Origin: Acidimicrobiales bacterium
GTDB lineage: Bacteria; Actinomycetota; Acidimicrobiia; Acidimicrobiales; Bin134
DNA length: 64,000 bases
Direction: 5' to 3'
Assembly (NCBI GenBank): GCA_965208785.1
Contig: OZ242356.1
Coordinates: 1,538,929 to 1,602,928, forward strand
Under the pieces are notes generated by a model, which ran no database searches, had not been told where the DNA came from, and saw nothing but the letters and a program-made list of their open reading frames with translations. Numbering within the stretch: the stretch's first letter is position 1; every line of letters starts with the position of its first letter. A program made the translations under genes and the position numbers. Of the stretch, positions 5,196 to 28,062 are shown piece by piece.

Positions 5196-5741
5196 GTGAG
5201 CATCGGCATGGGCTTCACCCCGGTTGGAGAGTGCCAAGAGTGGCAAGGTCGGGTGGTGTCCCTGAGCGTTGCCGAGATCAGGGCACCCGACGGCTCGGTC
5301 TATGAGCGGGAGATCATCCGCCATCCCGGAGCTGCGGTTATCGTGCCTCTCGACGGCCAAGAAGTCATCATGATCCGCCAGTATCGAGCTGCGGTCAATC
5401 GGGAGATGCTGGAGATCCCCGCCGGGAAGCTGGACAGCCACGATGAGCCTCCCGAGCTCACCGCGCGGCGGGAGATGGAAGAGGAGATCGGCAAACAAGC
5501 CGGCCGTCTTGAGCTGTTGGCCGTGTTCCACAACTCTCCGGGGTTCTGCGACGAGATCACCCACTGTTATCTGGCCACCGAGTTGACCGACGCCGACCGC
5601 CGTCCCCACGGCATCGAGGAGGAGCACATGGCCATCGAGCGCATCAAGCTGGCCGATGTGCCCGATCTCGTGGCCTCCGGCGAGCTGATCGACGCCAAGT
5701 CCATCGTCGGCCTTATGCTGGCCCGCGAGCGTCTGAGGTGA
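5196..5741 (+). CDS. NUDIX hydrolase (ADP-ribose pyrophosphatase-like)
   Basis: Nudix box GKLDSHDEPPELTARREMEEEIG. It holds the conserved position between pyrG and xerD. Confidence 0.85.
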   Translation: MSIGMGFTPVGECQEWQGRVVSLSVAEIRAPDGSVYEREIIRHPGAAVIVPLDGQEVIMIRQYRAAVNREMLEIPAGKLDSHDEPPELTARREMEEEIGKQAGRLELLAVFHNSPGFCDEITHCYLATELTDADRRPHGIEEEHMAIERIKLADVPDLVASGELIDAKSIVGLMLARERLR

Positions 5742-6658
5742 GCGCAGGAAACGGGGTCGAGGAGTTCTTGGATTGGCTGGTGCTGGAGCGGGGCCGCGCC
5801 CCCAGCACCCGTGAGGCCTATCGCCGGGACTTGAGCGGCTATTGCGAGGTCTTGGTCGCCCGGGGGCGCAGTGCCGAGACGGCCAACGAGGAAGATGTCT
5901 TGGCGCATTTGCGCCAACTGCAAAGCCGGGGAATGGCCCCGGCGTCTATAAGGAGAACGATGACCGCGGTGCGGACGTTTCACCAGTTTCTCGTGGTAGA
6001 CGGCTTGCGGGACGACGACCCTTGTTCCCATGTGGAAATTCCCAGGGTGCCCGCCAGTGTTCCGGGGGCGCTGAGTGAGGCCGAAGTGGATGCCATCTTG
6101 GACGCGGTGAACGGCAGCGACCGGGTATCGCGGCGAGACAGGGCCATGTTGGAGGTGCTCTATGGCACAGGAATGCGCATAAGCGAGCTGGTTGGGATGT
6201 CGCTGAGCGATGTGGACATGGCCGAGTCCCTCGTGCGGGTCTTAGGCAAGGGGCAAAGGGAACGGATTCTGCCGGTGGGCCGATGCGCTCAAGAGGCGCT
6301 GGCCGCGTGGCTGGTCCACGCCGGGCGAGGGGAGATGGAGCCCGAGCGCTGGGCATCCCAGCATGACCAGGAAGCGGTTTGGATCAACCAGCGGGGACGG
6401 CGCCTGTCGCGACAGGGTGCCTGGAGTGTGGTGAAGAAGAGGGCTCAGCAGGCAGCGCTGGGCGCCAAAGTCACCCCCCATGTGTTCCGCCACTCCTGTG
6501 CCACCCACATGCTGGACCATGGGGCCGACATCCGGGCGGTGCAAGAGCTCTTGGGCCATGCCTCCATCAGCACCACGCAGGTGTACACCATGGTGTCCAA
6601 GGAGAAGCTCTGGGAGGTTTATCGGGCTGCCCACCCGCGGGCGACGCTCAGCCGGTGA
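5738..6658 (+). CDS. xerD: Tyrosine recombinase XerD
   Basis: SAM-like N-terminal domain plus catalytic motifs HVFRHSCATHML and LGHASISTTQVYT. Overlaps the nudix stop by 4 nt. Confidence 0.85.
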   Translation: MSAGNGVEEFLDWLVLERGRAPSTREAYRRDLSGYCEVLVARGRSAETANEEDVLAHLRQLQSRGMAPASIRRTMTAVRTFHQFLVVDGLRDDDPCSHVEIPRVPASVPGALSEAEVDAILDAVNGSDRVSRRDRAMLEVLYGTGMRISELVGMSLSDVDMAESLVRVLGKGQRERILPVGRCAQEALAAWLVHAGRGEMEPERWASQHDQEAVWINQRGRRLSRQGAWSVVKKRAQQAALGAKVTPHVFRHSCATHMLDHGADIRAVQELLGHASISTTQVYTMVSKEKLWEVYRAAHPRATLSR

Positions 6659-8369: not shown

Positions 8370-11300
8370 AGGCCCTAAACGACGCAAAGGTCCGAGCAAT
8401 GAGCTCAGACTGTTCTTGGGTGTGTACGGCGGCGCTGCCGGTGGCTGGGCTGGATGACTCGCTGCGGCTTGCTCTGAGGATGTCGCAGCGGTCGCCGAAG
8501 GCGTCGTGGAGGTGCCCCTTCGCGTAGTTCCACGGCCCCATGTTCTGCGGCTCCTCCTGGAGCCAGACGATCTTTGCAGCCTTGGGGTAGTGGGCGAGGG
8601 CCTCGGCCAGGGCACTGGCTGGCCAGGGATAGAGCTGCTCGACCCGCAGAACGGCGGCGGGTGCCCCTATCTGGTTTCGCTGCGCAATGGCCTCGTGGCA
8701 GATCTTGCCGCTGGCCAGAACAACCCCGGTGGCCTGCTCCGGCCCAGGACCGCCCGTGTCGCCTAGAACCGGCTTGAACCAGCCGCCGGTCAGATCGGCC
8801 ACCGGCGACCGGGCGTCGCGGTGGCGCAACAGAGACTTCGGGGTGAACAGCACCAGCGGTTTGCGGGTGGAGCGCTTGGCCTGGTCTCGGAGCAAATGGA
8901 AGTACTGGGCCGCGCAGGACAGGTTGGCCACCCGGATGTTGTTCTCTGCCGCCGATTGGAGGAAGCGCTCTATTCGCCCCGAAGAGTGCTCCGGGCCCTG
9001 GCCCTCGAAGCCGTGGGGCAAGAGCATTACCAGTCCTGAGTGCTGGCTCCACTTGTCCTCGGCCGACACCACGAACTGGTCGATGATGATCTGCGCGCCG
9101 TTTACGAAGTCTCCGAACTGCGCCTCCCAGAGCACCAGTGCGCTCGGATCGCCCACCGAGTAGCCGTACTCGAAGCCCAAAGCGGCGTACTCCGACAGCA
9201 GCGAGTCGTACACCCACAGCCTGGCGTCGCCGCGGGCCAAGCCCGCCAGAGGGCAGTGCTCCCGGGCCGTCTGGTTGCACACCAGGGTGCTGTGGCGGTG
9301 CGAGAAAGTTCCCCGCCGGGAGTCCTGGCCGGCCAGTCGAATCGACACGCCCTCGTCGAGCAGAGTGCCGAAGGCCATCGCCTCGGCCAGCCCCCAGTCC
9401 ACCAGGCCCTCAGCCATCATGGCGTCGCGGGCCTCGAATTGGCGGGCCAGCTTGGGGTGCAGCACGAACCCGTCGGGCACCGATGTCAGCGCGTCGAAAA
9501 CCCGCTTCAACTGGCGTTCTGACACGCCGGTGTCCACTGGCGAAGAGACATGGGGAGCGGGGTCGGCAAGCCCCGCCGAGATCGACAGGTGGAGCTCCCG
9601 TTTGCCTGCTGTCTCGAGCCCGGCGGACTCGCCCGGGCTCTTGTCAGCCGCCTGGTCGCGGGTTTCTTCCAGCGCCTCTTGGAGCTTGGCCCGAAATTGG
9701 TCCATGGCCTGCTCGGCCACTTCGAGCGTGATGTCCCCGCGCTTCACCAGCGACTCCACATAGAGCTTTCGCACGGAGCGGTGGTCCTCGATTCGCCGGT
9801 ACATCTCCGGCTGGGTGTAGCTGGGGTCGTCGGCTTCGTTGTGCCCCTGGCGCCGGTAGCACCACATGTCGATCACCACATCCTTGTGGAAGTGGTTGCG
9901 GTAGGCCAGCGCCCAGTGGGCCACCCGGGCGCAGGCCTCGGGGTCGTCGCCGTTGACGTGGAAGATGGGGGCTTGGATCATCTTCGCCACATCGGTGCAG
10001 TAGTAGCTGGAGCGCGCCGACTCCGCAGTGGTGGTGAACCCCACCTGGTTGTTCACCACCAGGTGTACGGTGCCCCCGGTTCGGTAGCCCTGGATCAGCG
10101 ACAGATTCAAGGTTTCGCTGACCACTCCCTGGCCGGCGAAGGCGGCGTCGCCGTGTACCAGCACCGGCAGCACGGGGTAGCGATCGTCATCGTTGGCCGC
10201 CTGGCCCCGGACCAGCCCGCTGACCGGGCTGTGCTCTTCCTGGCCCCGGACGAGGTGGTCCAGGCGGGCTCGGACCATTCCCTCCACCACCGGGTTCACC
10301 GCCTCCAGATGAGACGGGTTGGCGGCCAGCTCCACGGCGATGCGGTTGCCGGACGAGCTCTCGAATTCCGAGGTCATCCCCAGGTGGTACTTAACGTCGC
10401 CCGACCCCTGCGTGGACGACTCGTCCAGATTTCCCTCAAACTCGCTGAAGAGCTGGTCGTAGTGCTTGCCCACGATGTTCACCAGAACGTTGAGCCGCCC
10501 CCGGTGGGCCATGCCCATGATGGCCGAGGCCATGCCCAAGTCGGCTGCCTTGCCCAGCACGGCGTCGAGGACAACGATGGCGCTCTCGGCCCCCTCGACC
10601 CCGAACCGCTTCTGACCCACGTACTTGGTGTCCAAGAACCGCTCCAGCGCTTCGGCCGCGTTCAGCCGATCCAGTATGTGGAGCTTCTCGTCGAGCCCCG
10701 TAGGGGTGCCCATCGCCTCCACTTGCGCCTGAATCCACTGCTTCTCGTCGGGATCTTGGATGTGCATGTACTCCACGCCCACCGTGCGGCAGTAGGCGTT
10801 GCGGAGCACATGCAGGATCTCGCCCAGAGGCATCTTGCCGTCGGGCTGGCCCAGCTCGATGCCGCCCAGCCCGGTGGTGAGGAACTCCCGGTCGAGATCC
10901 CAGATGGTGAGGCCGTAGGTGGCCGGGTCTAGCTCGGAGTGCATCTCGGGCTCGCTGGCCGAGAGCGGGTCGAGATCGGCGATGAGGTGGCCCCGCACCC
11001 GGTGCATGTTGATGAGCGCGTTCACCTGCATCTGCTTGGTGATCACGGCCTGCTCCCGGTTGAGGGGCAAGATGTCGGGTCGCCAGCGCACGGCCTCGTA
11101 GGGCACGCCCACCGCCCGGAAGATGTCCTCGTAGAAGTTGTGCTTGCCCAGCAGCAGGTCGTTGACCGCCCCCAGGAACATCCCCGACTCGGCGCCTTGG
11201 ATGATGCGGTGGTCGTAGGTGGACGACAAAGTGATCACCTTCGACACCCCCAGATCGGCCAGCGTGCGGGAGTCCGCGGCCTGATAGGCGGTGGGGTAGT

Positions 11301-12063
11301 CGATGGTGCCCACACCGACGATCACTCCCTGGCCGGGCATGAGCCGGGGCACCGACTGAACGGTGCCCAGGGTGCCGGGGTTGGTGATGCTGACGGTGAC
11401 GCCCGCGAAGTCGTCGGGGCTCAGATCGTTGCTGCGCACCTTGCGGACCATGGTGTCGTAGAGCTCGACGAAGTTGGGAAAGTCCAGCGTGTCGGCCTCT
11501 GAGATGCACGGCACCAGAAGCGAGCGGGATCCGTTGGCCCTCTCCACGTCCACGGCGATGCCCAGGCCGATGTGGGGGTGGCGCACCACCCGGGGACCGC
11601 TGTCGGTGTCGACGAAGGTGGAGTTCATCGCCGGCATGTGATGGGCGATGGACTGCACCACGGCGTAGGCGATCAGGTGGGTGTAGGACACCTTGCGCCC
11701 GTCGGTGCGCCTGAGGTAGCCGTTGACGATCTGGCGGTTGACGTCGAGCAGCTTGGCCGGGATCTCCCGGAAGCTGGTGGCGGTGGGGATGGCCAGGCTC
11801 GCCTCCATATTGAGGGCAATGCGAGCCGCCGCTCCCCGCAGCGGATTCCCCGGCGCCGGCTCGGGCGCCTCAGCCGGCTCGGGCGTCGGGCGGCTCTGGA
11901 CTGCGGGGGCGGCTGGATCGGGCAAGACGCGGTCGGGGCGGTAGTCGGAGAAGAAGTCCTGCCAGCTCTCGCTCACTGCTGCGGGGTCGGCCAGGTACTG
12001 GCGGTGCATCTCGTCCACCAGCCAGGCGTTCTGGCCGACTATCGACTCGGTGTCTGGGGTCAT
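8362..12063 (-). CDS. kgd: Multifunctional 2-oxoglutarate decarboxylase/dehydrogenase E1 with fused E2-like acyltransferase segment (Kgd type)
   Basis: 1233 aa. The N-terminal region has a succinyltransferase-like DHRIIQGAESG motif, followed by the ThDP-dependent E1 core. This architecture is typical of actinobacterial Kgd/OdhA. Confidence 0.95.
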   Translation of the reverse strand: MTPDTESIVGQNAWLVDEMHRQYLADPAAVSESWQDFFSDYRPDRVLPDPAAPAVQSRPTPEPAEAPEPAPGNPLRGAAARIALNMEASLAIPTATSFREIPAKLLDVNRQIVNGYLRRTDGRKVSYTHLIAYAVVQSIAHHMPAMNSTFVDTDSGPRVVRHPHIGLGIAVDVERANGSRSLLVPCISEADTLDFPNFVELYDTMVRKVRSNDLSPDDFAGVTVSITNPGTLGTVQSVPRLMPGQGVIVGVGTIDYPTAYQAADSRTLADLGVSKVITLSSTYDHRIIQGAESGMFLGAVNDLLLGKHNFYEDIFRAVGVPYEAVRWRPDILPLNREQAVITKQMQVNALINMHRVRGHLIADLDPLSASEPEMHSELDPATYGLTIWDLDREFLTTGLGGIELGQPDGKMPLGEILHVLRNAYCRTVGVEYMHIQDPDEKQWIQAQVEAMGTPTGLDEKLHILDRLNAAEALERFLDTKYVGQKRFGVEGAESAIVVLDAVLGKAADLGMASAIMGMAHRGRLNVLVNIVGKHYDQLFSEFEGNLDESSTQGSGDVKYHLGMTSEFESSSGNRIAVELAANPSHLEAVNPVVEGMVRARLDHLVRGQEEHSPVSGLVRGQAANDDDRYPVLPVLVHGDAAFAGQGVVSETLNLSLIQGYRTGGTVHLVVNNQVGFTTTAESARSSYYCTDVAKMIQAPIFHVNGDDPEACARVAHWALAYRNHFHKDVVIDMWCYRRQGHNEADDPSYTQPEMYRRIEDHRSVRKLYVESLVKRGDITLEVAEQAMDQFRAKLQEALEETRDQAADKSPGESAGLETAGKRELHLSISAGLADPAPHVSSPVDTGVSERQLKRVFDALTSVPDGFVLHPKLARQFEARDAMMAEGLVDWGLAEAMAFGTLLDEGVSIRLAGQDSRRGTFSHRHSTLVCNQTAREHCPLAGLARGDARLWVYDSLLSEYAALGFEYGYSVGDPSALVLWEAQFGDFVNGAQIIIDQFVVSAEDKWSQHSGLVMLLPHGFEGQGPEHSSGRIERFLQSAAENNIRVANLSCAAQYFHLLRDQAKRSTRKPLVLFTPKSLLRHRDARSPVADLTGGWFKPVLGDTGGPGPEQATGVVLASGKICHEAIAQRNQIGAPAAVLRVEQLYPWPASALAEALAHYPKAAKIVWLQEEPQNMGPWNYAKGHLHDAFGDRCDILRASRSESSSPATGSAAVHTQEQSELIARTFASFRASD

Positions 12064-12104
12064 GGGGAGAGTCTACGAACTTTGGGGCCACTAAGGTTCT
12101 GCGG

Positions 12105-12908
12105 GTGCGGTTGGCCACCTGGAATGTGAACTCCCTGAACGCCCGCATGCCCCGAGTCCAAGAGTGGCTGGAGCTGGCCGACCCCGATGTGGTGTGCATG
12201 CAGGAGACCAAGCTGGCCGACGAGGCTTTTCCCGGCCTGGCTTTCGAGTCGATGGGCTACGAGTGGGTCCACCACGGTGAGGGAAGGTGGAACGGGGTGG
12301 CCATTTTGAGCCGGGTGGGCTTGGCCGACCCCCACGACGGGTTCGCCGATGGACGCGAGGCCGATCCCGATGCCCGCATCGTGTGGGCCACCTGTGCCGG
12401 GGTGCGCGTGGCCAGCGCCTACATTCCCAACGGGCGGGAGCTGGGCCACGACCACTATCACTACAAGCTCAACTGGCTGAGCCGGCTCCGGTCTCATCTG
12501 GAGGCCAACGCCGATGCCGGGGCGCCGGTGGTGGTGGCCGGAGACTTCAACGTGGCCCCGGCCGACAACGACGTGTGGGACATCGCCGCCTTTGAGGGGC
12601 TCACCCATGTGAGCGGGCCCGAGCGCGAGGCATTCGCCTCGCTGGTGGACTGGGGCCTGGTCGACGTGTTCCGCCGGCGGTGGCCCGACGACGGCCTCTA
12701 CACCTTCTGGGACTATCAGGCGGGCCGGTTCCACAAGCGCCAGGGAATGCGCATCGACATGGTGATGGCCACCGAGCCGCTGGCTGAGCGGGTGGCCGCA
12801 GTGCTCATGGACCGCAACGCCCGCAAGGGGGAGAAGCCGTCGGACCACGCCCCGGTGGTGGTGGACTTCGAGTGGGATGAGGCGCCGGGGGCCGGCAGGG
12901 GAGCATGA
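12105..12908 (+). CDS. xthA: Exodeoxyribonuclease III
   Basis: MRLATWNVNSLNAR...VCMQETK...DHAPVVVDF, the EEP-family Xth signature. Confidence 0.9.
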   Translation: MRLATWNVNSLNARMPRVQEWLELADPDVVCMQETKLADEAFPGLAFESMGYEWVHHGEGRWNGVAILSRVGLADPHDGFADGREADPDARIVWATCAGVRVASAYIPNGRELGHDHYHYKLNWLSRLRSHLEANADAGAPVVVAGDFNVAPADNDVWDIAAFEGLTHVSGPEREAFASLVDWGLVDVFRRRWPDDGLYTFWDYQAGRFHKRQGMRIDMVMATEPLAERVAAVLMDRNARKGEKPSDHAPVVVDFEWDEAPGAGRGA

Positions 12909-12942
12909 GGATGGGGTGGGCAGTTCGGGCGGGCGGGGCGTG

Positions 12943-15114
12943 ATGGGGGGGTGGTCGACTCTGGCCGCCGCTGATCCGGCGGGCCACGGCCACGACCTGC
13001 TGGTCTTTTGGGTGAACATCCTGGTGCTGGTGGCCGTCTCCCACCTCTTCGGCCTGGTGATGAGAAGAATGGGGATGCCCTCGGTGGTGGGAGCGCTGCT
13101 GGCCGGGCTGGTGCTGGGGCCGTCGGTGTTCGGGGTGGTGTGGAAGTCGGGCTTCGAGTGGTTCTTGCCGGAGATCGGCCAGGGTGTGCAATGGAGCCTG
13201 CTGGCGGGGGTCAGCTGGGTGGGGGTGGCCTTGTTGCTGGTGGTGACCGGGTTCGAGACCGACTTGGGGCTCATCACCAAGCTGGGGAGGTCCGCGCTGC
13301 TGGTGACCGCGGGCAGCCTGGTGGTGCCGCTGATCGGCGGCGTCGTGGTCGGGCTGCTGCTGCCGTCCCTGTTCTTGGGCGAGGATGCCGAGCGGCTCAC
13401 GTTCACGCTGTTCGTGGCGTTGGCGCTCGCCGTGTCGTCTCTGGCGGTGGTGGCCAAGATCCTGAGCGAACTGGGGCTTATGCGCCGGGACTTCGGCCAG
13501 ATAACCGTGGCCGCGGGCATGGCCAACGATGTGATCGGCTGGATCATGCTGGGCGTGTTCACCGGTCTGGCCACCTCGGGCGGAGTGTCGGCCGGGCAGG
13601 TGTTGTCCACGCTGGGGGGGATTGCGGCCTTCGGGGTGTTGGCGCTGACAGTGGGCCAGCGGCTGGTGGACCTGCTGTTGCGGCAAGTGCGGCGCACCGG
13701 GGGCAGCCTGACCGCGGCACTGGCCGTGGCCATGGTGACCATGCTGGGATTCGGAGTGGCCACCGAGTGGCTGAAGGTGGAAGCGGTGCTGGGGGCGTTT
13801 GTGGCCGGGGTGGTGCTGCACCGGTCCCGGTTCCAGCACGAGGACACCATTCACCACTTGGAGGGTATGACCAACGCCCTGTTCGCGCCGGTTTTCTTCG
13901 CCACCGCCGGTTTGCAGGTGGATCTCCGCTTGCTGAACGACGCCGAGGCCCTTTGGTGGGCAGTGGTCGTGCTCGCGGTGGCCATCGTTTTCAAGTTTGC
14001 CGGGGCCTACGGCGGCGCCCGCCTCGCCGGCCGCACCCACCGGGCGGGGCTGGCCCTGGGCGCGGGGCTGAACGCACGGGGGACGCTGGAGATAGTCATC
14101 GCCACGGTGGGGTTAAGCGTCGGGGTGTTCAGCCCTACCGCCTTCGCGGTGATCGTGCTGGTGCCGGTGCTCACCTCCCTGTTCGCCTCGGCCACGCTGC
14201 GAGGGGTGGTGAACAACTGGCAGGGGACTCCCGATGAGCAGGAGCGGCTGGGCCGGGAGCAGGCGCTGAGCCGCAATCTGGTGGTGCGAACCTCACGGCT
14301 CCTGCTGCCCAGCCGGGGCGGCCCGGAGTCCATCGCCGCCGCCCAGGTTCTGCACTTCGCCTGGCCGATTGAAGCCGGGGCCACGGTGCTCACGGTGGGC
14401 GGCCGAGACGCCGAGGCCGACATCACGCCGCTGCGCAACGTGCTTCACGACCGGGCCTTGGAGCACCGACGGGTGCGCGGGGAAGACCCGGTTCGCGCCA
14501 TCATCGACGAGAGTCGGCTGGGGTTCGGCGTTATCGGGCTGGGTGCTCAGGATTACGCCGACACCATGCAGGTGATCTCGCCTCTGGTGGACGGGGTCTT
14601 GTCGGAGAGCCCCATCCCGGTGGTGGTGGTGCGCCGGGCGAGAAACCTGGACCGGCCTCTGCCGGGTGCATACAGCCGGGCGGTGGTGCCGGTGACCGGA
14701 AGTCCGGTGTCGCGGGCCGCCCAGGAGGTTGCCTTCAACCTCAGCGCCCAGCTCGGCACCGAACTGCACCTCACCCACGTCAACACCGTCAGGAGCGAGC
14801 CCGCCGTGTTGCCATCGCTGCTCAGCCGCCGGATGATCGCCCGCAGCAGCAGCATCGTCGGGGTGCAGATGGTGGCCCAGGCCGAGACGCTCGCCGTTGA
14901 GCTGGGGGCGACAACCCAGACGGTGGTCATGGACGGCGCCTCGCCGGCCGATGAGATATTGAAGCTGGCGCGAGACATTGAGGCCGATCTTGTGGTTATG
15001 GGCGCCAACCTCCGCCGGGTTGGAGACCGCCCGTTTTTGGGCCACCGTGTGGAGCAGGTGCTCCGAGACTGCGACGCCACCGTGGTGGTGGTGCTCATCC
15101 CATTCGACCTCTAG
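12943..15114 (+). CDS. CPA2-family cation:proton antiporter fused to C-terminal tandem universal-stress-protein domains
   Basis: About 12 hydrophobic helices (Kef/NapA-like) followed by two USP-like modules (VVPVTGS...DLVVMG). ATG 12943 avoids overlap with xthA. Confidence 0.8.
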   Translation: MGGWSTLAAADPAGHGHDLLVFWVNILVLVAVSHLFGLVMRRMGMPSVVGALLAGLVLGPSVFGVVWKSGFEWFLPEIGQGVQWSLLAGVSWVGVALLLVVTGFETDLGLITKLGRSALLVTAGSLVVPLIGGVVVGLLLPSLFLGEDAERLTFTLFVALALAVSSLAVVAKILSELGLMRRDFGQITVAAGMANDVIGWIMLGVFTGLATSGGVSAGQVLSTLGGIAAFGVLALTVGQRLVDLLLRQVRRTGGSLTAALAVAMVTMLGFGVATEWLKVEAVLGAFVAGVVLHRSRFQHEDTIHHLEGMTNALFAPVFFATAGLQVDLRLLNDAEALWWAVVVLAVAIVFKFAGAYGGARLAGRTHRAGLALGAGLNARGTLEIVIATVGLSVGVFSPTAFAVIVLVPVLTSLFASATLRGVVNNWQGTPDEQERLGREQALSRNLVVRTSRLLLPSRGGPESIAAAQVLHFAWPIEAGATVLTVGGRDAEADITPLRNVLHDRALEHRRVRGEDPVRAIIDESRLGFGVIGLGAQDYADTMQVISPLVDGVLSESPIPVVVVRRARNLDRPLPGAYSRAVVPVTGSPVSRAAQEVAFNLSAQLGTELHLTHVNTVRSEPAVLPSLLSRRMIARSSSIVGVQMVAQAETLAVELGATTQTVVMDGASPADEILKLARDIEADLVVMGANLRRVGDRPFLGHRVEQVLRDCDATVVVVLIPFDL

Positions 15115-15123
15115 CGGTGCGTC

Positions 15124-15198
15124 GTGGGGTGTGTTGCGGCACATCGCTGGCCCTAAGGGAGTTCAGACAGCGCTGAGGACGGCGTGCAGGTATGGCGA
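15124..15198. repeat. Left copy of a 75-bp direct repeat (74/75 identical to 16979-17053)
   Basis: Aligned base by base, with a single mismatch (15186 G versus 17041 T). It carries a fossil copy of the helicase 3' end (SPYLHAVLSAV-stop) 9 nt after the antiporter stop. Confidence 0.95.
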
Positions 15199-15200
15199 GG

Positions 15201-15236
15201 GGGAGGGTGAACTCCACCGGTGGAGTTCACCCTCCC
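15201..15236. repeat. Perfect 36-bp palindrome (two 18-nt arms, no loop) at the inner edge of the left repeat
   Basis: gggagggtgaactccacc / ggtggagttcaccctccc are exact reverse complements. The palindrome contains the DUF4411 stop codon (15227-15229). Confidence 0.95.
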
Positions 15237-15715
15237 AAGACGAATCGTGCTCTCTCTGCCCGCAGCATCTCGTAGGGATTGACGAATTTGACTCCTGTCC
15301 CAATGCAGGCATTGGGAATCTTGATCTTCTTTGGTGATGGGCTAAACACCTCATGCGTCACCACGACATGGTCGTGCGCATGGGCTTGGGCCACGAGGTA
15401 ATAGTCGGCAACTTGCAAAAACGTCGCGACCCCCGCCGGTTCATAGCTTTGGCCGTTCGCCCAGCTGCTCACAACGGTCAGGCTGGGCACAACCTCGGTA
15501 TCCGGAGAAAGAAACAACCCAGGCCTCTGTCTGGCCCATTCTGCGAGTTCATCGTCCACGGCCTGGATTTCGTTACCCACTCTCTCGATGCTGAAGACTC
15601 TGCCCAAAGCATTCTGCTGAACGAGCCAGTCCCAGAACGCGGGGCAGAATTCGAATCCATAGTGGAGGTTCTTCGCTTGGATAAAGACGTTGGCGTCAAG
15701 AAGGTACGTCGTCAT
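15227..15715 (-). CDS. DUF4411-family PIN-like nuclease (putative toxin)
   Basis: 162 aa. YLLDANVFIQAKNLHYGFEFCPAFWDWL at the N-terminus is the pattern I recognise for DUF4411. The start overlaps the upstream gene's stop (ATGA). Confidence 0.75.
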   Translation of the reverse strand: MTTYLLDANVFIQAKNLHYGFEFCPAFWDWLVQQNALGRVFSIERVGNEIQAVDDELAEWARQRPGLFLSPDTEVVPSLTVVSSWANGQSYEPAGVATFLQVADYYLVAQAHAHDHVVVTHEVFSPSPKKIKIPNACIGTGVKFVNPYEMLRAERARFVLGG

Positions 15716-16902
15716 ATCACTCCAAGACGCTGGCTCAGTTCATTGAATGTGGATTGCTTCTTGAAGCCGAGCATCTTGAAAGCGTCTGTATAGAGTGTCT
15801 GCCCCTCAAGAGTGCTGGCGATGACCGAGCGAGCGAACAACTTGGATATCCTGATGGGTTGTGTGTTGTAGAAATTGCCCCCCTCGCCTCCTTTGTCGAT
15901 CAGATCAAAGACGCGATCGAGTTCGGCTCGGTACGAACTTCGATACTCGTTCCAATCAAGGTACCCGGCTTCAAATACCCTCCGCAGCACCACAAGAGTG
16001 CTTGATTTGAAGCGACGCGCTAGTCGATCAAGTTCATCAGTCAGGTCGGCATGGACATCAAACACCGAACGCAGCGTCTCTAAAGGCACTAGGACTTCTC
16101 CGGCAACGCGGTTGCACCAGCGCTCCACCTCATTCGTCGATTGCGTTCCGAGATCTGCATCAGAAAGGGCGCTTTCACCAAGCCAGATATGGGCCAATTC
16201 GTGGGCAAGAGTGAATATCTGTGCCGCTCTTGTGTCTGATCCGTTGACAAAGACCAGAGGTGCCAGCGAGTCGACAAGCGCAAATCCTCTGAACTCTTCA
16301 GGATCCAGCTTGCGGTGGGTATTGCTTCCTACCACACCGCTGACCATGACCAGCACTCCGATTTCCTCGGCCTGGTCTCTCAGGTAGGCAAATGCGTCAG
16401 CCCAACTCGGTCCTCGCATGTCGATCTGAAAGGAGAGTGCTGCTGTGATCTCAGCACCTGCCTTCGCGGGTGGAACGGCAGTAGTTATCGAGCCAACCTG
16501 GGAAACCTGGTGGATTCCAATGCTGTGAGCATAGTCGCGGTACCAGTCCTGTCGCTGCTGGCATTGGTAGATGGTGTCCAGAAGATCAGGACTCGGTCGA
16601 CTGACAGACCTATCACCGATAGTACGGAAGTCGGGTATGGGCACCCCGTCCTCTGGTGGCGTCTGCAAGAAGAAGAAGCCAACCGGCGTGCGGGTCGCCC
16701 TCGCGAAATTCTCTAGTTGCTTCAAGGTGGGAGCCATCTCACGAGACTCCCATTTGGGCAACTTGGGAAACTTGCTCGCGAGCTTCTCATCGTCAAGGCC
16801 AGAGCGCTCGCAGGCCCATGTCAACAAAGCGGGGTTAACGTCAACCCGAACTGTCACGCCTATCCATCCCTGCTCATGATTCGGAGGGGGCGAACGCACC
16901 AT
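15712..16902 (-). CDS. XRE-type HTH fused to ImmA/IrrE (COG2856, DUF955) zinc metallopeptidase
   Basis: HELAHIWLGE (HExxH) in the centre. The N-terminal ~70 aa look HTH-like (APTLKQLENFARATRTPVGFFFL). The true start may be a GTG ~45 nt downstream of 16902. Confidence 0.8.
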   Translation of the reverse strand: MVRSPPPNHEQGWIGVTVRVDVNPALLTWACERSGLDDEKLASKFPKLPKWESREMAPTLKQLENFARATRTPVGFFFLQTPPEDGVPIPDFRTIGDRSVSRPSPDLLDTIYQCQQRQDWYRDYAHSIGIHQVSQVGSITTAVPPAKAGAEITAALSFQIDMRGPSWADAFAYLRDQAEEIGVLVMVSGVVGSNTHRKLDPEEFRGFALVDSLAPLVFVNGSDTRAAQIFTLAHELAHIWLGESALSDADLGTQSTNEVERWCNRVAGEVLVPLETLRSVFDVHADLTDELDRLARRFKSSTLVVLRRVFEAGYLDWNEYRSSYRAELDRVFDLIDKGGEGGNFYNTQPIRISKLFARSVIASTLEGQTLYTDAFKMLGFKKQSTFNELSQRLGVI

Positions 16903-16978
16903 TTCCTTGCCCCAATCACAAAACCATATCTCCCCACAACCGAAGTTCTAGCCCAATGCTCATGAACAATCATGGCTA

Positions 16979-17053
16979 GTGGGGTGTGTTGCGGCACATC
17001 GCTGGCCCTAAGGGAGTTCAGACAGCGCTGAGGACGGCGTTCAGGTATGGCGA
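16979..17053. repeat. Right copy of the 75-bp direct repeat
   Basis: Covers the last 11 codons plus stop of the helicase gene (17018-17053) and 39 nt downstream of it. Confidence 0.95.
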
Positions 17054-18469
17054 AGGAGAGCGGGCCGAGGTCCGGTCTCCGAAGGCCCGCTCTGAGGCCC
17101 AGTGGCAGTGCAGTTCTCGCTTGGCCCTGGTGATGGCCACGTAGAGCAGACGCCGCTCCTCGGCGACCTCGGCCGCCGTCTGTGCCCGGCTGATGGGCAC
17201 CAGTCCCTGCTCCATGCCGGCCAGATGCACGATGGGCCACTCCAGCCCCTTGGCCGCATGAAACGTGGACACATCCACCGCGTCGGCAACGCTGGGCCGG
17301 GCTGCTCCGGCGCCATGCTCGGTGCGGTGGGAGTCGATGCGAACTCGACAGGGGATCTGCGCTTTGCCCAGCGCAGTGGCCAGCACTGCGATTTGGGCAT
17401 TGGTGCGGGCCAGCACGGCCATCGACGACCATGCCGTCTCGGGGCCCTTGGCGTCGCGCAGGGCTCGAGCTATGGCCAGCGCCTCGTCGAAGTCGTCGGC
17501 ATGGGTGCTCACCGTGGGCCGGGGACCGTCGAGGCTGTGGGCGGTCAGCGAGGCCGACCCCGCCGGCAGCACCGCCCGGCCCGCGGCCAGGATCTGCGGG
17601 CTGGAGCGGTAGTTGTCCACCAGGTCGAGCACCGCGGCATCGGGCAACCAGTCGGTGAACCGCTCGATGTATTCGGAGTCCGCGCCGTTCCATCCGTAGA
17701 TCGCCTGATTGGGATCGCCCACCGCGCACAGGTCGTTGCGGTCGCCCAGCCAGGCTCGGAGCAACTCGAACTGGAGCCGGTTCACGTCCTGGAACTCGTC
17801 GACGAACAGGTGTCGGCAGCTCCAGCGGCGGGCCTCGGCGTATTCGGGGTCGTCGGTCAAGTCCCTCAGGGCCAAGATCAGCAGGTCGTCGAAGTCCACC
17901 ACCCGCCGTTTGGCCTTCTCGCGCTCGTAGTGCTGGTAGACGTCGGCGACGGCGGCATGGTTCATTGCCGTCCAGCGGCCGAAACCGGCAGCCTTTTCGC
18001 GATAGTCGTCGGGGGTGAGGCGGTGCGCCTTGGACCATTCGATTTCGGCCACCGCATCTTGCACCTCGGCCTTGGCCAGACGCAGTCCTGCTTGTTTGGC
18101 CGACCGGGCGACCAGGCCTCGCTTGTCTTGCACTATTTCTGGCGGCCTGACCCCTCCCTCGGCCCAGCGGGTGCGCAACTGGGCATAGGCCGTGCTGTGA
18201 AAGGTGCCCGCTTTCACCGAGCTCCGCAGCCCCAGCCCGGCCAGGCGCTCGCGAAGTTCGTCGGCCGCCTTGCGGGTGAACGTGATTGCCAGGGTGCGCT
18301 TGGGGTCGATGGCGCCGATGCCGGACTGATAGGCGATCCGACGGGTGAGCACCCTGGTCTTGCCGGTGCCTGCCCCGGCGCGGATGCACAGCGGCGTCCC
18401 CGGGGATTCCACCGCGGCCCGCTGCCGCTCGTTCAGCCCCTCCATCACTGGCTCCAAAACCCTCACCAC
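17018..18469 (-). CDS. Short UvrD/PcrA-like superfamily-1 helicase
   Basis: Walker A AGAGTGKT, motif II LFVDEFQDVN, C-terminal UvrD_C-like VSTFHAAKGLEWPIV and LLYVAITRAK. At 483 aa (or 475 aa from ATG 18445) it is far shorter than canonical UvrD. Confidence 0.85.
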   Translation of the reverse strand: MVRVLEPVMEGLNERQRAAVESPGTPLCIRAGAGTGKTRVLTRRIAYQSGIGAIDPKRTLAITFTRKAADELRERLAGLGLRSSVKAGTFHSTAYAQLRTRWAEGGVRPPEIVQDKRGLVARSAKQAGLRLAKAEVQDAVAEIEWSKAHRLTPDDYREKAAGFGRWTAMNHAAVADVYQHYEREKAKRRVVDFDDLLILALRDLTDDPEYAEARRWSCRHLFVDEFQDVNRLQFELLRAWLGDRNDLCAVGDPNQAIYGWNGADSEYIERFTDWLPDAAVLDLVDNYRSSPQILAAGRAVLPAGSASLTAHSLDGPRPTVSTHADDFDEALAIARALRDAKGPETAWSSMAVLARTNAQIAVLATALGKAQIPCRVRIDSHRTEHGAGAARPSVADAVDVSTFHAAKGLEWPIVHLAGMEQGLVPISRAQTAAEVAEERRLLYVAITRAKRELHCHWASERAFGDRTSARSPSPYLNAVLSAV

Positions 18470-18478
18470 CCCAACCTA

Positions 18479-18578
18479 CCGACACCGGTGACAATTGCGA
18501 GGTTCCCTGAATGGGCGTCCAATATCGTCTCTGATCTTGCGAATCCGACACCGGTGACAATTGCGAGGTTCCCTGAAT
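18479..18578. repeat. Perfect 34-bp direct repeat (18479-18512 and 18545-18578, period 66) upstream of the helicase start
   Basis: ccgacaccggtgacaattgcgaggttccctgaat occurs twice. On the coding (minus) strand each copy contains TTGTCACCGGTG. Confidence 0.95.
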
Positions 18579-18589
18579 CCCATCTGAAT

Positions 18590-19867
18590 TCAAGCTGCGC
18601 TGAGCAGTAGGGGTTCGCGGACTCCTAGGGCTCCGGGTGGGGGTTTGTTGTGGTATCCGGTTTGGCAGCAGCTATCGGGGTCGGGGCTGAAGGGGTCGGG
18701 GTCGAGCATGGGTTGGAGCTCGTATTTACCGGTGTTGGGGCATCTGACGACTTTCCAGTTTCGGTCGTGGATGTCGTGGTGGCAGGCGGTGCAGACCAGT
18801 ACGAGGTTGTCGATGCTGGTGGGTCCGCCCCTCTGCCAGGGCACGATGTGGTGGGCTTCGCACCATACGGCGGACTTGCCGCAGCCGATGCAGTGCTTGT
18901 CGCGGATTATGAGCGCGGCCCGCTGTGCTTCGGTGGCCGAGCGGGCGTTGCGGCCCACGTCGAGGGTCTGGAACTTGGTGTCGAAGATGCTGGGCAAGAT
19001 GTCGGCGTCGCAGGCGAGGCGTAAGGTTTCTGCTTTGGTGAGGGGGGTTCCGTCGAGCAGTCGGGCATCGGCGATCTGCTGGTTGATCAGGTCCCAGTTG
19101 GCGGTCAGGATCAGCTTGGCGCCTTGTGGGCGCCGGTTCTCGGCCTCGGCGCAGACTAGGTGTTCCAGGGCGTCGGCCATCCGCTGGGCGAACGTGGTAT
19201 CCGCGGATCCGTCTTGGTTGGAGCGGATTCTGCGTTCCTCGGCGGCCAAGGCGGCTTCGAGCCTGTTGCCTGCCTCGGGATCGAAACGTCCGTACACGTC
19301 GTACATGCCATCTTGTGATGACTTGCGGATGGCGAAGTTGCGCTTTTGGAGTTGCCGGTCCCTCAAAGACCTGCCGCCGTCGGCGGCCTGTTCGATTTGC
19401 TGGTCGCGCACCGTGCGGGCGAACTGCCCGAAGTCTTCGGTCTTGGCCGCCTCTACCAGAGCGGTCTCGTCCACCGGCCCCTCGGAGGCGGCTCGGGCGA
19501 TCAGCCTGGCGTGGTCGGCGGGTATCTCGCCGGCTTGCAGCGCCTCGGCCGTTGCCTCTGCTTTGGATAGCCGCTGGGCGTCGAGCAGCTCCTTGCGGGC
19601 CTGGCTGTTGGATGCGCCCAGGGTTTCCACGGCGGCTTGGCGGGCCGCGCCCTGGCCTGATCGCTCGGACAGCGCCAGCAGCGTCTTGGCTTTCAAGGCC
19701 GAAATGGCCGATGCGGCCCGGCCCAAGACTACGAGGCGCTGAGACAAATCAGACTCGGACAGCGCCGCCAGATCCACCGCGGGAACGCATACCGCAGCCC
19801 CGCACCCAGCATTCCCGCCGGCCGCAGCGCCACTGCTGTTGCCCCTGGTAGAAGACCCTAAATCCAT
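18590..19867 (-). CDS. DUF222/HNH endonuclease (13E12-repeat-like)
   Basis: C-terminal HNH motif CIGCGKSAVWCEAHHIVPWQRGGPTSIDNLVLVCTACHHDIH. The long alpha-helical N-terminal region is as in actinobacterial DUF222 proteins. ATG 19867 (MDLGSS) is preferred over TTG 19897. Confidence 0.85.
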   Translation of the reverse strand: MDLGSSTRGNSSGAAAGGNAGCGAAVCVPAVDLAALSESDLSQRLVVLGRAASAISALKAKTLLALSERSGQGAARQAAVETLGASNSQARKELLDAQRLSKAEATAEALQAGEIPADHARLIARAASEGPVDETALVEAAKTEDFGQFARTVRDQQIEQAADGGRSLRDRQLQKRNFAIRKSSQDGMYDVYGRFDPEAGNRLEAALAAEERRIRSNQDGSADTTFAQRMADALEHLVCAEAENRRPQGAKLILTANWDLINQQIADARLLDGTPLTKAETLRLACDADILPSIFDTKFQTLDVGRNARSATEAQRAALIIRDKHCIGCGKSAVWCEAHHIVPWQRGGPTSIDNLVLVCTACHHDIHDRNWKVVRCPNTGKYELQPMLDPDPFSPDPDSCCQTGYHNKPPPGALGVREPLLLSAA

Positions 19868-19930
19868 GTATGTAACCCTACACCTCACCGGTGACAACTA
19901 CCCCCCGAACAAGCCCGTCCAGCCGCACTA

Positions 19931-19963
19931 TTTCCGAAAAAATCTGGAAATTCTTTTCGGAAA
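19931..19963. terminator. AT-rich hairpin (10-bp stem tttccgaaaa/ttttcggaaa, 13-nt loop)
   Basis: Inverted repeat read directly. It lies between the Type ISP fragment and the HNH gene in an unusually AT-rich 60-nt stretch. Confidence 0.35.
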
Positions 19964-19977
19964 ACCGGCAAGCAGCT

Positions 19978-20661
19978 TCAGTGGGGTGGGGGCAGTGAGG
20001 GTGGGAGGCTGTTGACGGTTCGGGCGGTCTCGGCGGAGATGTGGGTGAGGCGGCGGAGGTGTCGGATGAGGTTGAAGGGCTCGTCGGCCCAGGCGTGCCA
20101 GCCGTTGGGGTTGTCGGTGATGCCGCTGGGCTTGTCGTGTTTGTGGCGGAGGCTGTCGATGGCCCAGTCGAGTGGTGTGCGGCCCGACACGGTGTATTCG
20201 TGAGCCTCCCCGGGAATGTCGATGAGCAGGCAGCGGGGGTTTATCTCCAACGTTGAGCGGTCGGTTTCCTTGCCGTGTTTGGCCCATCGCATCTTCTTGT
20301 CGATGCGGTAGGCGGCGGGGTCGGCTTCGCCCTCGTCGGGCTGGCCGTCCACCAGGCAGACCACGGGGTGCTCGTCGGCGGTCTCGTAGTTGACGTGCGG
20401 GTCCGTGAGCGCCCGGCCCGCGGCCCTGAACGCCTCGAAGTCGGGGGCAAGTGGCACCCTGGGCAGGTTGCGCTGCAAGTCGTGCTGGTATCGCTCCCGC
20501 CAGTCGGGGGCGTGCATCACGCCGTAGAGGTACTCCCAGATGTCGTCTTTGGCGATGTGGCTGCCGTGGCGGGCATGGAACTGCTCCAGGCACCAGTCGG
20601 TGATGTTGTCGGCGTCGGCGGGTTCGGCAATGTCAAGCCCAAGCTTCAGGGTGTCGGTCAT
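19978..20661 (-). pseudogene. Stand-alone C-terminal fragment of a Type ISP / YeeA-like restriction-modification enzyme
   Basis: IWEYLYGVMHAPDWRERYQHDLQRNLPRVPL...AGRAL matches the conserved C-terminal region of Type ISP/N6-methylase fusions, which are normally over 900 aa. Only 227 aa remain, with their own AGGAGG and ATG. Confidence 0.6.
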
Positions 20662-20681
20662 CGGGGCCTCCTAAGTTGGGG

Positions 20682-20960
20682 TTACTGGCGATAGCGAGTG
20701 GCAACCCGGCCGGCAGGGTCCAACGCGTGCAGGTCGGGCAAGAGGTCAATCGCTAGCGCAGCGAACCGGGTGCGGTTCGATGGGCTGCTCAACAGGACCG
20801 CCTCTGCCGGGGGACGGCTCTGGTCTGCTGGCCCGGCCCCATCAAGTGCAGATCGGGCAGCAGCCCCGCCGCCAGCACCCCGAAGATCGCCATATTCAAC
20901 GGCCCTGATATCAAGATTGTTGAGGTGTTTCTGACTCTTCGCGATGGTTTGGGCTGGGTT
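20682..20960 (-). pseudogene. Degenerate, out-of-frame fragments of the same Type ISP gene (two diverged copies of the F..LA..LPDLH motif) plus the decayed transposase tail
   Basis: Minus-strand frames read RFAALAIDLLPDLHALDPAGRVATRY (stop 20682-20684) and IFGVLAAGLLPDLHLMGPGQQTRAVP ~100 nt upstream in another frame. No usable start codon is present. Confidence 0.35.
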
Positions 20961-22100
20961 TCAAGCAGCATGGGGTGGTCGCTGGCCGGTCGGGGTTGGG
21001 GGGCGGCCGGGGTGCTGGGCGATGGGGCACAGGGCCGTGAACCGGCGGGTGTGGTTGGCGCGCGTCTCTGAGCCGTTGTCGGAGGTCGCCAAAAGCAGCG
21101 GCGCGTCCTGGCCGTCGGGGAGTTCGGCGTCGGGGTCGGCGAGGCGGTCTGCGGGGTCGTCGGTGAGGGGCCCCTCGTTTTGCAGCGCGCGGGTGAACAG
21201 GATCCGCGCGGCGACCGTGTCGGGGCTTGGGGCGAGGTGGGCGGCGGCCCATTTTGGGGACACGGCATCGACTATGGCGTAGGCCCGGCGGGCTGTCGTG
21301 CAGCGCCCGAGCTGGGAGGCGTCCCAGCACCACAGCTGGTTCGGCCGCCATTCGCACCAGTCCGGCCGAGGCGCCTTGGGCCTGGGAGCAGGACGGGGCT
21401 CTCCTTTGGGCGCGAGGCCGTGGCGTGCCAGAGCGCGGTCCGCCGTCGAGGGCGACACCCACACCCGCTGTTCGCAGGACCCGCGGTGGGCGAGCCTGCG
21501 GTGCGAGCGGTCTGTGTCGCCCCACTCTTCGAACAGCGCCAAAACCTCGGCCTCCTCCCGCTCCAAGATCCCGTGGACCGGGTTCCCGCCCGGGCGGGCG
21601 TCGTCGAGGCGGCCCCCGGCACGGCGCTGCTGCCAGCGCCGCACCCGGGACCGGTCGATCCCCAAAGCGCCGCAAACCCGGCCCAGCGTCCACCCGGCGT
21701 CAACAGCGCCGCCGACCAGCCCCAACAACGCCGCCTCGGCGGCCCCGCCGGCACGGGAGGGGACAGGGCCGCTCATCCCCAACGCGATTCTCCCCGCAGA
21801 ACCGCCAGCTCCACCGCCAGCTCGACCACCGTGGACTGGAGCCGCCCCCGCCCCGGCGCGCAAAGCCGCCGCCCCCGACGCCTCCTCGCGGGACCGGCGC
21901 GGCCGGCCCGGGACCGGCGCGGCCGGCCCGGCCCCGACGCCTTCAACGCCGCAACAGCCCCATCGCGGGCCACCGCCCGCAACCGGGCAAGCACCGACCG
22001 GCCCCGCCCCCGCCCCCGCCGCCGCGCCGGCCTGGGAGATCTCCCCCGACAGCACCCCCACCCACAAGTCGTACTCCTGCTCCGCCGAAAGAACCCTCAT
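20961..22100 (-). mobile_element. DDE (rve integrase-core) transposase with N-terminal HTH regions, C-terminally degraded (IS remnant)
   Basis: NQLWCWDASQL (first D) and LLATSDNGSE (second D). The ORF then stops at GRPPTPTGQ, just before the expected catalytic E. The likely start is M at 22100 (MRVLSAEQEYDLW). No terminal inverted repeats were identified. Confidence 0.65.
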
Positions 22101-22155
22101 CGGCCTTCGCCGGCCAGAACCCATCGCCGACAGCCCCCAAAACCAAGACCAGCAA

Positions 22156-22169
22156 CCCCCCCCCCCCCC
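22156..22169. repeat. Homopolymer C14
   Basis: Counted directly. It lies in the divergent region between the transposase and the giant surface-protein gene. Confidence 0.95.
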
Positions 22170-22352
22170 ACACACACGCGCTCTGAGAAAACCCGGAAAC
22201 CGTCGCGCGAAATCAGACGCAACACACGAAACCCCGCGCAACTTCGTGGGGTGTTGGCGGGGATCGGCGGGGCTGTGTTGCTTGTGCTGGGGCGGGCGGC
22301 GGGGCTATTGTGTGGCTGTTCAGTGTTGCCCGGCGGTTTTCGAGGAGGCGGG

Positions 22353-27428
<5,076 letters not shown>

Positions 27429-27629
27429 CACCACACCAGTGATGGGTGAACCCCGGCCGGCGCCCTCAACCACCTACTGCAATCCCCCCAACACAAAACG
27501 TTTGCGATAACCGATCGAATCCCGCGGTCCAGACCACGCGGCAGGAATCGCGTATCCATGCGCTCTTCTTTGAGCCTCCGCTGACACGCGGGGTGGGGGT
27601 GGGGTGAGGGGGTTGGCTCTTGTGGGAGG

Positions 27630-27989: not shown

Positions 27990-28062
27990 GGAGGGCTCTT
28001 GGGCTGACCGGCTCGGATAAAACGCGGGTACTGTCCCAGCGGTGAAGACCTCAGGAGGCAGC

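Follow-up and report, generated by a model that had tools for sequence, protein, structure and literature searches.

A VapBC52-type toxin-antitoxin cassette inserted with a long target duplication at the 3' end of a helicase gene in a sponge-associated actinobacterium

A stretch of 64,000 nucleotides from an Acidimicrobiales bacterium (GenBank assembly GCA_965208785.1, contig OZ242356.1, positions 1,538,929 to 1,602,928; hereafter the window, with coordinates counted from its first letter) carries a two-gene cassette at the 3' end of a UvrD-like helicase gene, bracketed by long direct repeats. This genome is related to sponge metagenome-assembled genomes designated 'Candidatus Poriferisocius', and the host is a sponge-associated actinobacterium. 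Both cassette genes lie on the reverse strand. The first (15712..16902) encodes a 396-residue protein with a putative helix-turn-helix (HTH) region and an IrrE/ImmA-type zinc peptidase domain, similar to the antitoxin VapB52, and the second (15227..15715) encodes a 162-residue PIN-like protein of the DUF4411 family, similar to the toxin VapC52. The two genes overlap by ATGA at 15712-15715. The insert between the repeats is 1,773 nt long, with a GC content of 0.52-0.57 versus about 0.68 outside, so that the AT-rich interior and overlapping gene pair described in the original prediction are indeed present.

The direct repeats (15124-15205 and 16979-17060) are 82 nt long and identical at 79 of 82 positions. 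The first 62 nt match exactly, the two copies are the only occurrences in the window, and no match was obtained in 100 shuffles. They had been described as 75-bp repeats identical at 74 of 75 positions, the right copy supplying 11 helicase codons; on inspection the repeats are longer, and the right copy (16979..17060) contains the functional helicase 3' end, with 13 codons and the stop, plus 39 nt of flank. The helicase gene (17018..18469, reverse strand; Pfam UvrD-helicase at 2.6e-60 plus UvrD_C) is conserved and syntenic across Acidimicrobiales, has its stop codon at 17018-17020 inside the right copy, and is followed directly downstream by the co-oriented cassette. The left copy (15124..15205) is displaced: it holds 39 nt of intergenic sequence and a fossil helicase 3' end, whose reading frame closes with SPYLHAVLSAV, as previously read from the sequence, where the intact helicase closes with SPYLNAVLSAV. 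It begins, as had also been noted, 9 nt past the stop (15112-15114) of a convergent gene for a Na+/H+ antiporter-Usp fusion protein (12877..15114, forward strand; Pfam Na_H_Exchanger at 8e-50, Usp at 1e-15), which forms the left chromosomal flank.

At the left junction, a perfect 36-nt inverted repeat (15201..15236, reverse strand, 100% complementary, fold energy -32.7 kcal/mol) supplies the stop codon of the DUF4411 gene; it is terminator-like but has no U-tract, and a consensus scan for terminators passed over it. Upstream of the antitoxin gene, at the opposite end of the cassette, lies a conserved leader (16903..16956, reverse strand) with a putative promoter or operator and a putative ribosome-binding site (RBS); a sigma-70 consensus scan of this leader found no match. 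A 22-nt filler (16957..16978), homologous neither to the empty site described below nor to the closest relatives of the cassette (loci L089-L091), separates the leader from the right repeat copy. As the original prediction held, no recombinase is carried, the two genes being the only ones between the repeats. No tRNA gene was found in the window, and its scanned open reading frames (ORFs) include no recombinase beyond a housekeeping XerD and a weak, sub-threshold rve remnant at about 21-22 kb.

Profile searches with hidden Markov models agreed with the families first assigned by eye. The DUF4411 protein scores 170.4 bits against Pfam model PF14367 (cut-off 23.5, E-value 3.3e-50), with residues 4-158 spanning positions 1-159 of the 159-column profile, and it matches PDB chains 9vzy_D and 9vzz_A, 'DUF4411 family protein', at 1.6e-6. 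Its PIN acidic residues D7, E49, D104 and E122, together with D55, are 98-100% conserved among 54 homologues; four negatively charged residues were described by Matelska et al. 2017, who predicted the pairing of DUF4411 with HTH-DUF955 proteins to be a three-component toxin-antitoxin (TA) system. The partner protein matches Peptidase_M78 (PF06114) at 3.1e-16. Across 24 family members, H234, E235 and H238 of its HExxH motif and residue E260 do not vary; they align with H216, H220 and E245 of VapB52, and P90-D91-F92-R93-T94 aligns with the RDFRR of 9vzy_A that contains the FR motif, D91, R93 and T94 being invariant. The proposed HTH domain fared less evenly. The window antitoxin has no Pfam HTH match at E<=1, and weak matches occur elsewhere in its family, to HTH_3 in 13 of 24 members and to HTH_31 in four of 24 (best 0.002-0.003). 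However, its N-terminus aligns to 9vzy chain A, deposited as 'HTH cro/C1-type domain-containing protein', and the family profile matches that chain over nearly its full length at 2.4e-26. Among PADLOC models the antitoxin matches RmrA (5e-14) and CapP (8e-12), and among NCBIfam models there is only a weak match to antitox_spr1629; the DUF4411 protein matches no model in either collection.

Structure 9VZY is the crystal structure of the Mycobacterium tuberculosis VapBC52 complex (Rv2514c/Rv2515c; Singh et al. 2026, PMC13273310; PDB 9vzy/9vzz). In that system the DUF4411 PIN toxin VapC52 cleaves tRNAs in the variable or anticodon loop, VapB52 binds the toxin in a 1:2 ratio, single-stranded DNA switches on the IrrE-type peptidase of VapB52, which cuts itself at the FR motif and so frees the toxin, and the pair confers mycobacteriophage resistance in M. 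smegmatis (PMC13273310). The window pair has the same layout: an antitoxin of about 390 residues, with an N-terminal DNA-binding-like domain, HExxH peptidase, HTH and C-terminal domain, followed by a DUF4411 toxin of about 160 residues. The FR motif, zinc ligands and PIN acidic residues are all kept. It differs in that the homology is distant (2.4e-26 for the antitoxin profile, 1.6e-6 for the toxin), the branch is known from sequence, and the cysteine-switch residue C229 of VapB52 aligns to S247, serine being at least 90% conserved in the family of the window cassette. RosmerTA (RmrA/RmrT) and CapP/CapH similarly place a toxic or defence effector under the control of a protein with zinc-peptidase and HTH domains; there, however, the matches span only about 110-120 residues of the peptidase region, and the DUF4411 partner matches no PADLOC model, RmrT included.

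We therefore regard the identity of the cassette as near certain, that of a VapBC52-type TA or anti-phage module. A TA or abortive-infection role, in line with the addiction or anti-phage role first proposed for it, is well supported by homology to VapB52 and VapC52, by the conserved motifs, by the DUF4411 pairing and by the occurrence of relatives in restriction-modification (R-M) and TA islands. The HTH/peptidase protein would neutralize the DUF4411 toxin and, when triggered, would probably cut itself at the FR motif, freeing the toxin. The original description of the toxin as a PIN-like nuclease is right as to family, but its likeness to VapC52 suggests that the protein is most likely a tRNase rather than a DNA nuclease.

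That the cassette is an insertion is equally near certain, as comparison with unoccupied sites makes clear. A search found 350 relatives of the helicase, of which the closest 18 keep the synteny. In all 18 of these species the gene order is CoA-transferase, helicase, then the convergent antiporter, xth and kgd, and at the helicase/antiporter junction none has a cassette or a flanking repeat. The stop codons of helicase and antiporter are 0-67 nt apart in 17 of the 18, and about 115 nt apart in L016. Closer still is a conspecific NCBI contig (L088, GCA_028820185.1), traced through a 99% identical helicase homologue; identical-protein look-ups for the window helicase, xth and ImmA proteins had returned none on record. 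L088 is 99.7% identical to window positions 10698-15205 and 99.4% identical to 16979-18722, and these two alignments share one 82-nt copy, an exact empty site. The 39-nt flank within the repeat is therefore chromosomal, since the empty site holds it in single copy. The proposal of a self-contained cassette inserted at the helicase 3' end is thus upheld by one conspecific and 18 related species, and an ancestral arrangement kept by repeat-less relatives is not what we found, the relatives being empty at this site.

The occupied site is likewise found in other assemblies. An identical DUF4411 protein is encoded in seven independent assemblies, the layout recurs on a 448-kb ENA contig (L081), and a JGI contig (L082) covers the cassette and both repeats; because all of these agree, an assembly artefact is excluded and the duplication is real. 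Comparison of the window with L081 finds the antiporter 93.2% and the helicase 89.9% identical at the nucleotide level, against 100% for the DUF4411 gene, 99.3% for the peptidase gene and 98.7% for the leader, that is, nine mismatches in the 1,773-nt cassette versus 289 in 3,567 nt of flanks (p=2e-40). Across occupied strains at the same site the cassette is 99.3-100% identical and the flanks 90-93%. In L081 and L082 identity drops at the cassette-facing edge of each repeat; in L084 and L087, which cover the left repeat alone, it drops there. Because the cassette is near-identical where its flanks have diverged, it must have spread horizontally, moving between lineages that differ by 7-10%.

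The empty site also shows which parts of the repeats came from elsewhere. The single copy in L088 equals the right copy of the window at 82 of 82 positions. It matches the left copy at positions 1-62, differs from it at positions 63, 76 and 79, and diverges fully after position 82. All three mismatches thus fall within the cassette-proximal 20 nt (positions 63-82; 15186-15205), a clustering with P=0.013, and at a background divergence of 0.3% the probability of three or more mismatches in 20 nt is 3.7e-5. Therefore the entering DNA carried a stretch resembling the helicase 3' end, of another allele, joined to the end of the DUF4411 gene. Such a foreign edge is not expected if the duplication arose by fill-in of the recipient's own sequence.

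A census of cassette relatives shows that bracketing repeats recur. Homologues of the peptidase gene, 54-87% identical, were collected at 82 loci, and in 78 of these the DUF4411 gene directly follows; of the other four, three contigs stop 1-130 nt past the ImmA gene, and L135 has 518 nt without a match. The original prediction had called for a census of whether homologous cassettes duplicate gene ends, and they sometimes do. Among 65 relatives (61 loci with enough flank and four from large contigs, the repeats being refined by self-alignment), five, all of them among the 61, have long bracketing direct repeats, which span gene ends or starts, versus none of 277 pseudo-cassettes of the same length drawn from the same and other contigs, where no pair reached 38 bits (Fisher p=1.7e-4). 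The repeats are 525 nt and 99.6% identical in L134 (4881-5405 and 7996-8519); 191 nt and 99% identical, 183 nt of it exact, in L144, where they take in the last 61 codons and stop of ychF; 146 nt and 79% identical in L142, covering the RBS, start and N-terminus of a downstream gene; 134 nt and 94.8% identical in L139, with another 75 nt at 76%, at the stop of a DUF1643 gene; and 44 nt and 89% identical in L154. All five loci have the same order: upstream repeat, ImmA peptidase gene, DUF4411 gene, downstream repeat. The two genes stand alone between the repeats in four of the five, and L134 has about 680 nt extra on each side. The repeats of L134 also enclose a 204-residue ORF without a Pfam match, and the GC content of that contig is 0.46-0.50 versus 0.56 for the cassette. 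Comparison of the repeats at the six loci shows no common core, their longest common substrings (5-11 nt) being in our judgement at chance level, and the cassette ends have neither a common motif nor a terminal inverted repeat.

L144 has empty sites as well. In L175 and L176, 95-96% identical to it, the ychF gene crosses a single 191-nt copy and continues into what in L144 lies beyond the downstream copy. In L144 the ancestral ychF tail AATGTTTAGTAAGG comes after that copy, and ychF now closes with a synonymous foreign tail, AACGTGTAGTCCGG. This is a second, independent case of a foreign cassette-proximal edge on one copy. A second indel lies by the same cassette, downstream of the ychF site: 525 nt of L144 (5562-6087), with a 184-residue ORF lacking a Pfam match, are absent from L176 (1368-1371).

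The closest relatives of the window cassette are placed differently. L089-L091 lie at another locus, between an SDR gene and an S1-domain gene, without bracketing repeats, and there the cassette has diverged as much as its flanks. Homology with the window is limited to window positions 16956 to 15233; it begins in the leader, takes in GATATGGT...GGGGCAAGGAAATG, and breaks off within the last codons of the DUF4411 gene, which ends RFVLGG in the window and RFVLGPSH in L089-L091, where the junction palindrome is missing. The palindrome, the 22-nt filler and this breakpoint look like illegitimate joints rather than defined element ends. Bracketing repeats are absent also from L171 and from L172-L174, relatives about 72-73% identical that lie in defence and TA islands with type I R-M genes (HsdR/M/S), HicAB, a Gp49/HTH pair and a Phd-PIN pair. 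In sponge Acidimicrobiia the neighbourhood of the S1-domain gene and PcrA (L089-L091, L171, L174) seems to be a hotspot of variation.

Precedent exists for this architecture. Long, variable target duplication without mobility genes is known for R-M units, from comparisons with empty sites (Nobusato et al. 2000, Gene 259:99; Furuta, Abe and Kobayashi 2010, PMC2853133; reviewed in PMC3874152), and the repeats of those units often span start or stop codons (PMC2853133). As at the window locus, a small addiction-type unit without mobility genes leaves its target gene intact; the direct repeats are long and variable (more than 30 bp, up to hundreds), correspond to a single copy in a related empty site, and show imperfect three-way identities among upstream copy, downstream copy and target. 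By the measures of Furuta et al. 2010, the window has a duplication above 30 bp (82 nt), an insert below 20 kb (1,773 nt), no integrase, transposase or tRNA, and an empty site in L088; L175 and L176 are the empty sites for L144. The window cassette shares this mode of insertion, not membership in the R-M set: its cargo is a TA pair whose characterized homologue cuts tRNA, with no restriction or modification genes, and it comes with population evidence, namely spread across 7-10% divergence and foreign variants at a repeat edge. The mechanism for R-M units was left open, with DNA breakage by the R-M system proposed as the common factor (PMC2853133). This double-strand-break explanation carries over poorly to a TA cargo whose homologue cuts tRNA. 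A literature search found no report of insertion with long target duplication for a TA module.

We propose that the incoming DNA bore the two genes together with a copy of the helicase 3' end and its flank from a previous host, and probably took the form of a circle that had arisen when the two repeats of an occupied site recombined. A single crossover between the copy on the element and the chromosomal site, by the host's homologous recombination and thus presumably RecA-dependent, would insert the cassette, with the helicase gene intact on one side of it and the fossil 3' end displaced to the other, whatever route of transfer had brought the DNA in. Recombination between the repeats could later delete the cassette precisely. 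Such homology-driven entry by a single crossover is favoured over a dedicated integrase because of the foreign 20-nt edge, the diverged repeats of 44-525 nt at unrelated targets and the lack of a shared core. The same observations make it unnecessary to suppose, as the original prediction did, that the cassette must be mobilized in trans. We put the probability of the account as a whole, a VapBC52-type module inserted with a long target duplication and entering by a homologous single crossover, at roughly 0.6; the recombination route taken by itself stands at about even odds.

Several observations weigh against this account. For RecA recombination to be efficient, 82 nt is short. A degenerate 23-nt repeat pattern that would recognize attB, attL, attR and attP forms found no match in the metagenome or viral contigs scanned, so that it yielded neither a circular junction nor additional empty sites. 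Within a strain (the window, L082), positions 1-62 of the repeat are the same in both copies, whereas between strains both copies vary like chromosomal DNA. An attempt to fit a single clonal attP-like sequence to all strains consequently failed, and the pattern is only partly explained, requiring gene conversion or donors of the same lineage. A mosaic locus, L084 (JGI 3300009935, corresponding to window positions 15716-16853), is 99.8% identical to the window in the DUF4411 gene and 91.5% in the peptidase gene, which could reflect exchange of antitoxin alleles, so that the cassette itself is also subject to ordinary allelic recombination. L088 may have lost the cassette by precise excision and so be a revertant rather than a naive site, and 60 of the 65 relatives have no bracketing repeat. 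The first duplication at a new locus is left unexplained by the model; the palindrome, the 22-nt filler and a 35-nt duplication in L016 hint at illegitimate, break-associated events. As to function, the serine at S247 in place of the cysteine switch suggests that the trigger or its regulation may differ from that of VapB52.

The duplication in L016 lies at the same intergenic site as the window cassette (window-equivalent positions about 15090-15125). The last eight codons and stop of the antiporter gene plus 5 nt are repeated there (34 of 35 nt identical) with a 29-nt spacer. An earlier insertion with duplication may have left this footprint; alternatively, such events may come easily at this site.

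An alternative that we consider unlikely is a single ancient insertion, after which a favoured allele spread by homologous recombination in the flanking genes, the repeats being a relic. It would follow the style of the Neisseria minimal mobile elements, which reportedly involve no target duplication and have their exchange endpoints in flanking genes. Like the window cassette, those elements lack mobility genes and occupy a fixed position flanked by conserved genes, where host homologous recombination swaps them between strains, but the exchange endpoints here coincide with the repeats. (The term 'minimal mobile elements' occurs in a passage of PMC8627216.) The breakpoint inside the L084 cassette fits such a history, as does the divergence of both repeat copies between strains at chromosomal rather than cassette rates; at the locus of L089-L091 and L171, moreover, the cassette diverges with its flanks and has no repeats, which implies vertical inheritance there. 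On the other hand, the window and the empty-site strain are isogenic in the flanks as far as the repeats, only 20 nt being foreign, and exchange in the flanks should have scattered the endpoints that in L081 and L082 fall at the inner repeat edges on both sides. A single founding event would also leave bracketing repeats at five unrelated loci unexplained.

Quite unlikely, in our view, is the action of a tyrosine or serine recombinase encoded in trans, which would make the cassette an integrase-less remnant or hitchhiker flanked by att sites and the 82-nt repeat the identity segment of attL and attR. Regeneration of a gene 3' end, as in classical integrative elements, and the use of one insertion point in every occupied strain speak for it; foreign variants at one inner edge would fit arms derived from attP, and integrative elements of actinobacteria usually have identity segments of 40-110 bp. 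Cis-mobilizable elements (CIMEs) of the ICESt1/3 family and pseudo-SCC (staphylococcal cassette chromosome) elements at rlmH are integrase-less and att-flanked, rely on a known cognate integrase and a fixed core site, and derive from larger elements. The window cassette resembles them in its direct repeats at a gene 3' end, its lack of a recombinase in cis and its removability via the repeats, but no cognate element was found for it at the sites compared, and the repeats of its family lack a shared core and vary in target and length. No integrase lies between the repeats at any of the six loci, five of which hold the two genes alone, and targets and repeat lengths (44-525 nt) vary without a common core or conserved cassette ends, the homology between cassette copies even breaking off inside the DUF4411 coding end. 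At the helicase site itself, no other element occurs in the 18 relatives, and none that bears a cognate integrase was found in those species or in five conspecific contigs, occupied or empty. Among the window ORFs scanned, the one clear recombinase is the XerD-type tyrosine recombinase at 5738-6658 (TIGR02225, 329.6 bits), most likely housekeeping, in a conserved pyrG-NUDIX-xerD neighbourhood.

Three further kinds of element were considered and rejected. For an IMEX or Xer-dif mechanism using this XerD, the gene sits in a housekeeping cluster, the cumulative GC skew rises steadily without a turning point, and no dif-like motif was seen by eye. For an integron cassette, no attC-like site was seen by eye. 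For a DDE transposon or miniature inverted-repeat transposable element, terminal inverted repeats are lacking, and the duplications are variable (44-525 nt) rather than short and fixed.

It is very unlikely that the repeats are a true fill-in duplication, in which staggered breaks at a distance of 82 nt, or template switching during replication, capture the cassette and gap repair copies the target, an idea hypothesized for R-M units (PMC2853133). It would account for the identity of the first 62 nt of the two copies within a strain, complete with that strain's own variants, and for the near-perfect repeats of L144 (183 nt exact) and L134 (525 nt, 99.6%), and the junction palindrome and filler do resemble illegitimate joints; at the same intergenic site, L016 has its own duplication, of 35 nt with a spacer of 29 nt. 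It fails to account for mismatches clustered at the cassette-proximal edge beside an undiverged cassette (by the position and number tests given above), for the synonymous foreign allele at the ychF tail of L144, and for repeats as diverged as those of L142 (79%) and L139 (95% and 76%), too far apart to be filled in from one molecule; moreover, the characterized homologue of the toxin cuts tRNA, not DNA. Finally, an ancestral arrangement lost in relatives, or a duplication made by the assembler, is scarcely credible: precise loss via the repeats does mean that L088 alone cannot prove the direction of the event, but 18 of 18 related species have the compact convergent junction without a repeat, GC is 0.55 inside versus 0.68 outside, the cassette is 99-100% identical across lineages 7-10% apart, and seven assemblies concur on two copies that differ by fixed mismatches.

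Neither component of the finding is categorically new, since both a VapBC52-type TA system and insertion with long target duplication are known; it is a well-documented new case that is informative on mechanism. Insertion with long target duplication has for 25 years been a documented yet unexplained route of gene mobility, linked to DNA cutting by R-M systems, and the window locus extends it to cargo whose characterized homologue is an RNase. A natural series is at hand, comprising an isogenic empty site, occupied strains, an identity drop at the repeats, foreign edges and a second case with its own empty site. With it the likely cause shifts from the nuclease of the cargo to host homologous recombination working on a target copy that the element itself carries, and the question becomes testable. 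Small defence or TA modules can thus cross between lineages 7-10% apart without integrases, and the VapBC52 family reaches uncultured sponge symbionts. A broader proposal, possible but with the odds clearly against it, is that VapBC52-type TA cassettes are as a class recombinase-free, homology-guided mobile elements, each taking a lineage-specific copy of its locus, leaving as a circle when its two repeats recombine and re-entering that locus in further strains or species by one crossover, with the target gene kept intact by the duplication. Were this so, insertion with long target duplication would be a general life cycle of addiction modules, needing no DNA cleavage by the cargo, and the mechanism left open for R-M units since 2000 would be resolved. 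An antitoxin that senses single-stranded DNA might also couple toxin release to intermediates of recombination or transfer.

A second insertion, of about 9.1 kb, lies on the other side of the helicase gene (18497-27622). It is recognized by comparison with L001, which has just 57 nt between its homologues of window positions 18301-18496 and 27623-28299. No bracketing direct repeat was found for it, and the empty-site strain L088 has at least its first 226 nt. It contains a DUF222-HNH endonuclease gene (18590-19897), a fragment with a Type ISP C-terminal domain (19978-20661), a weak remnant of an rve/HTH transposase (20961-22241) and an ORF of 2,082 residues (21180-27428) that includes very long stretches of proline. 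Two perfect 34-nt copies (18479-18512 and 18545-18578) lie 66 nt apart in the spacer that separates the start of the helicase gene from the HNH gene, and L088 has both.

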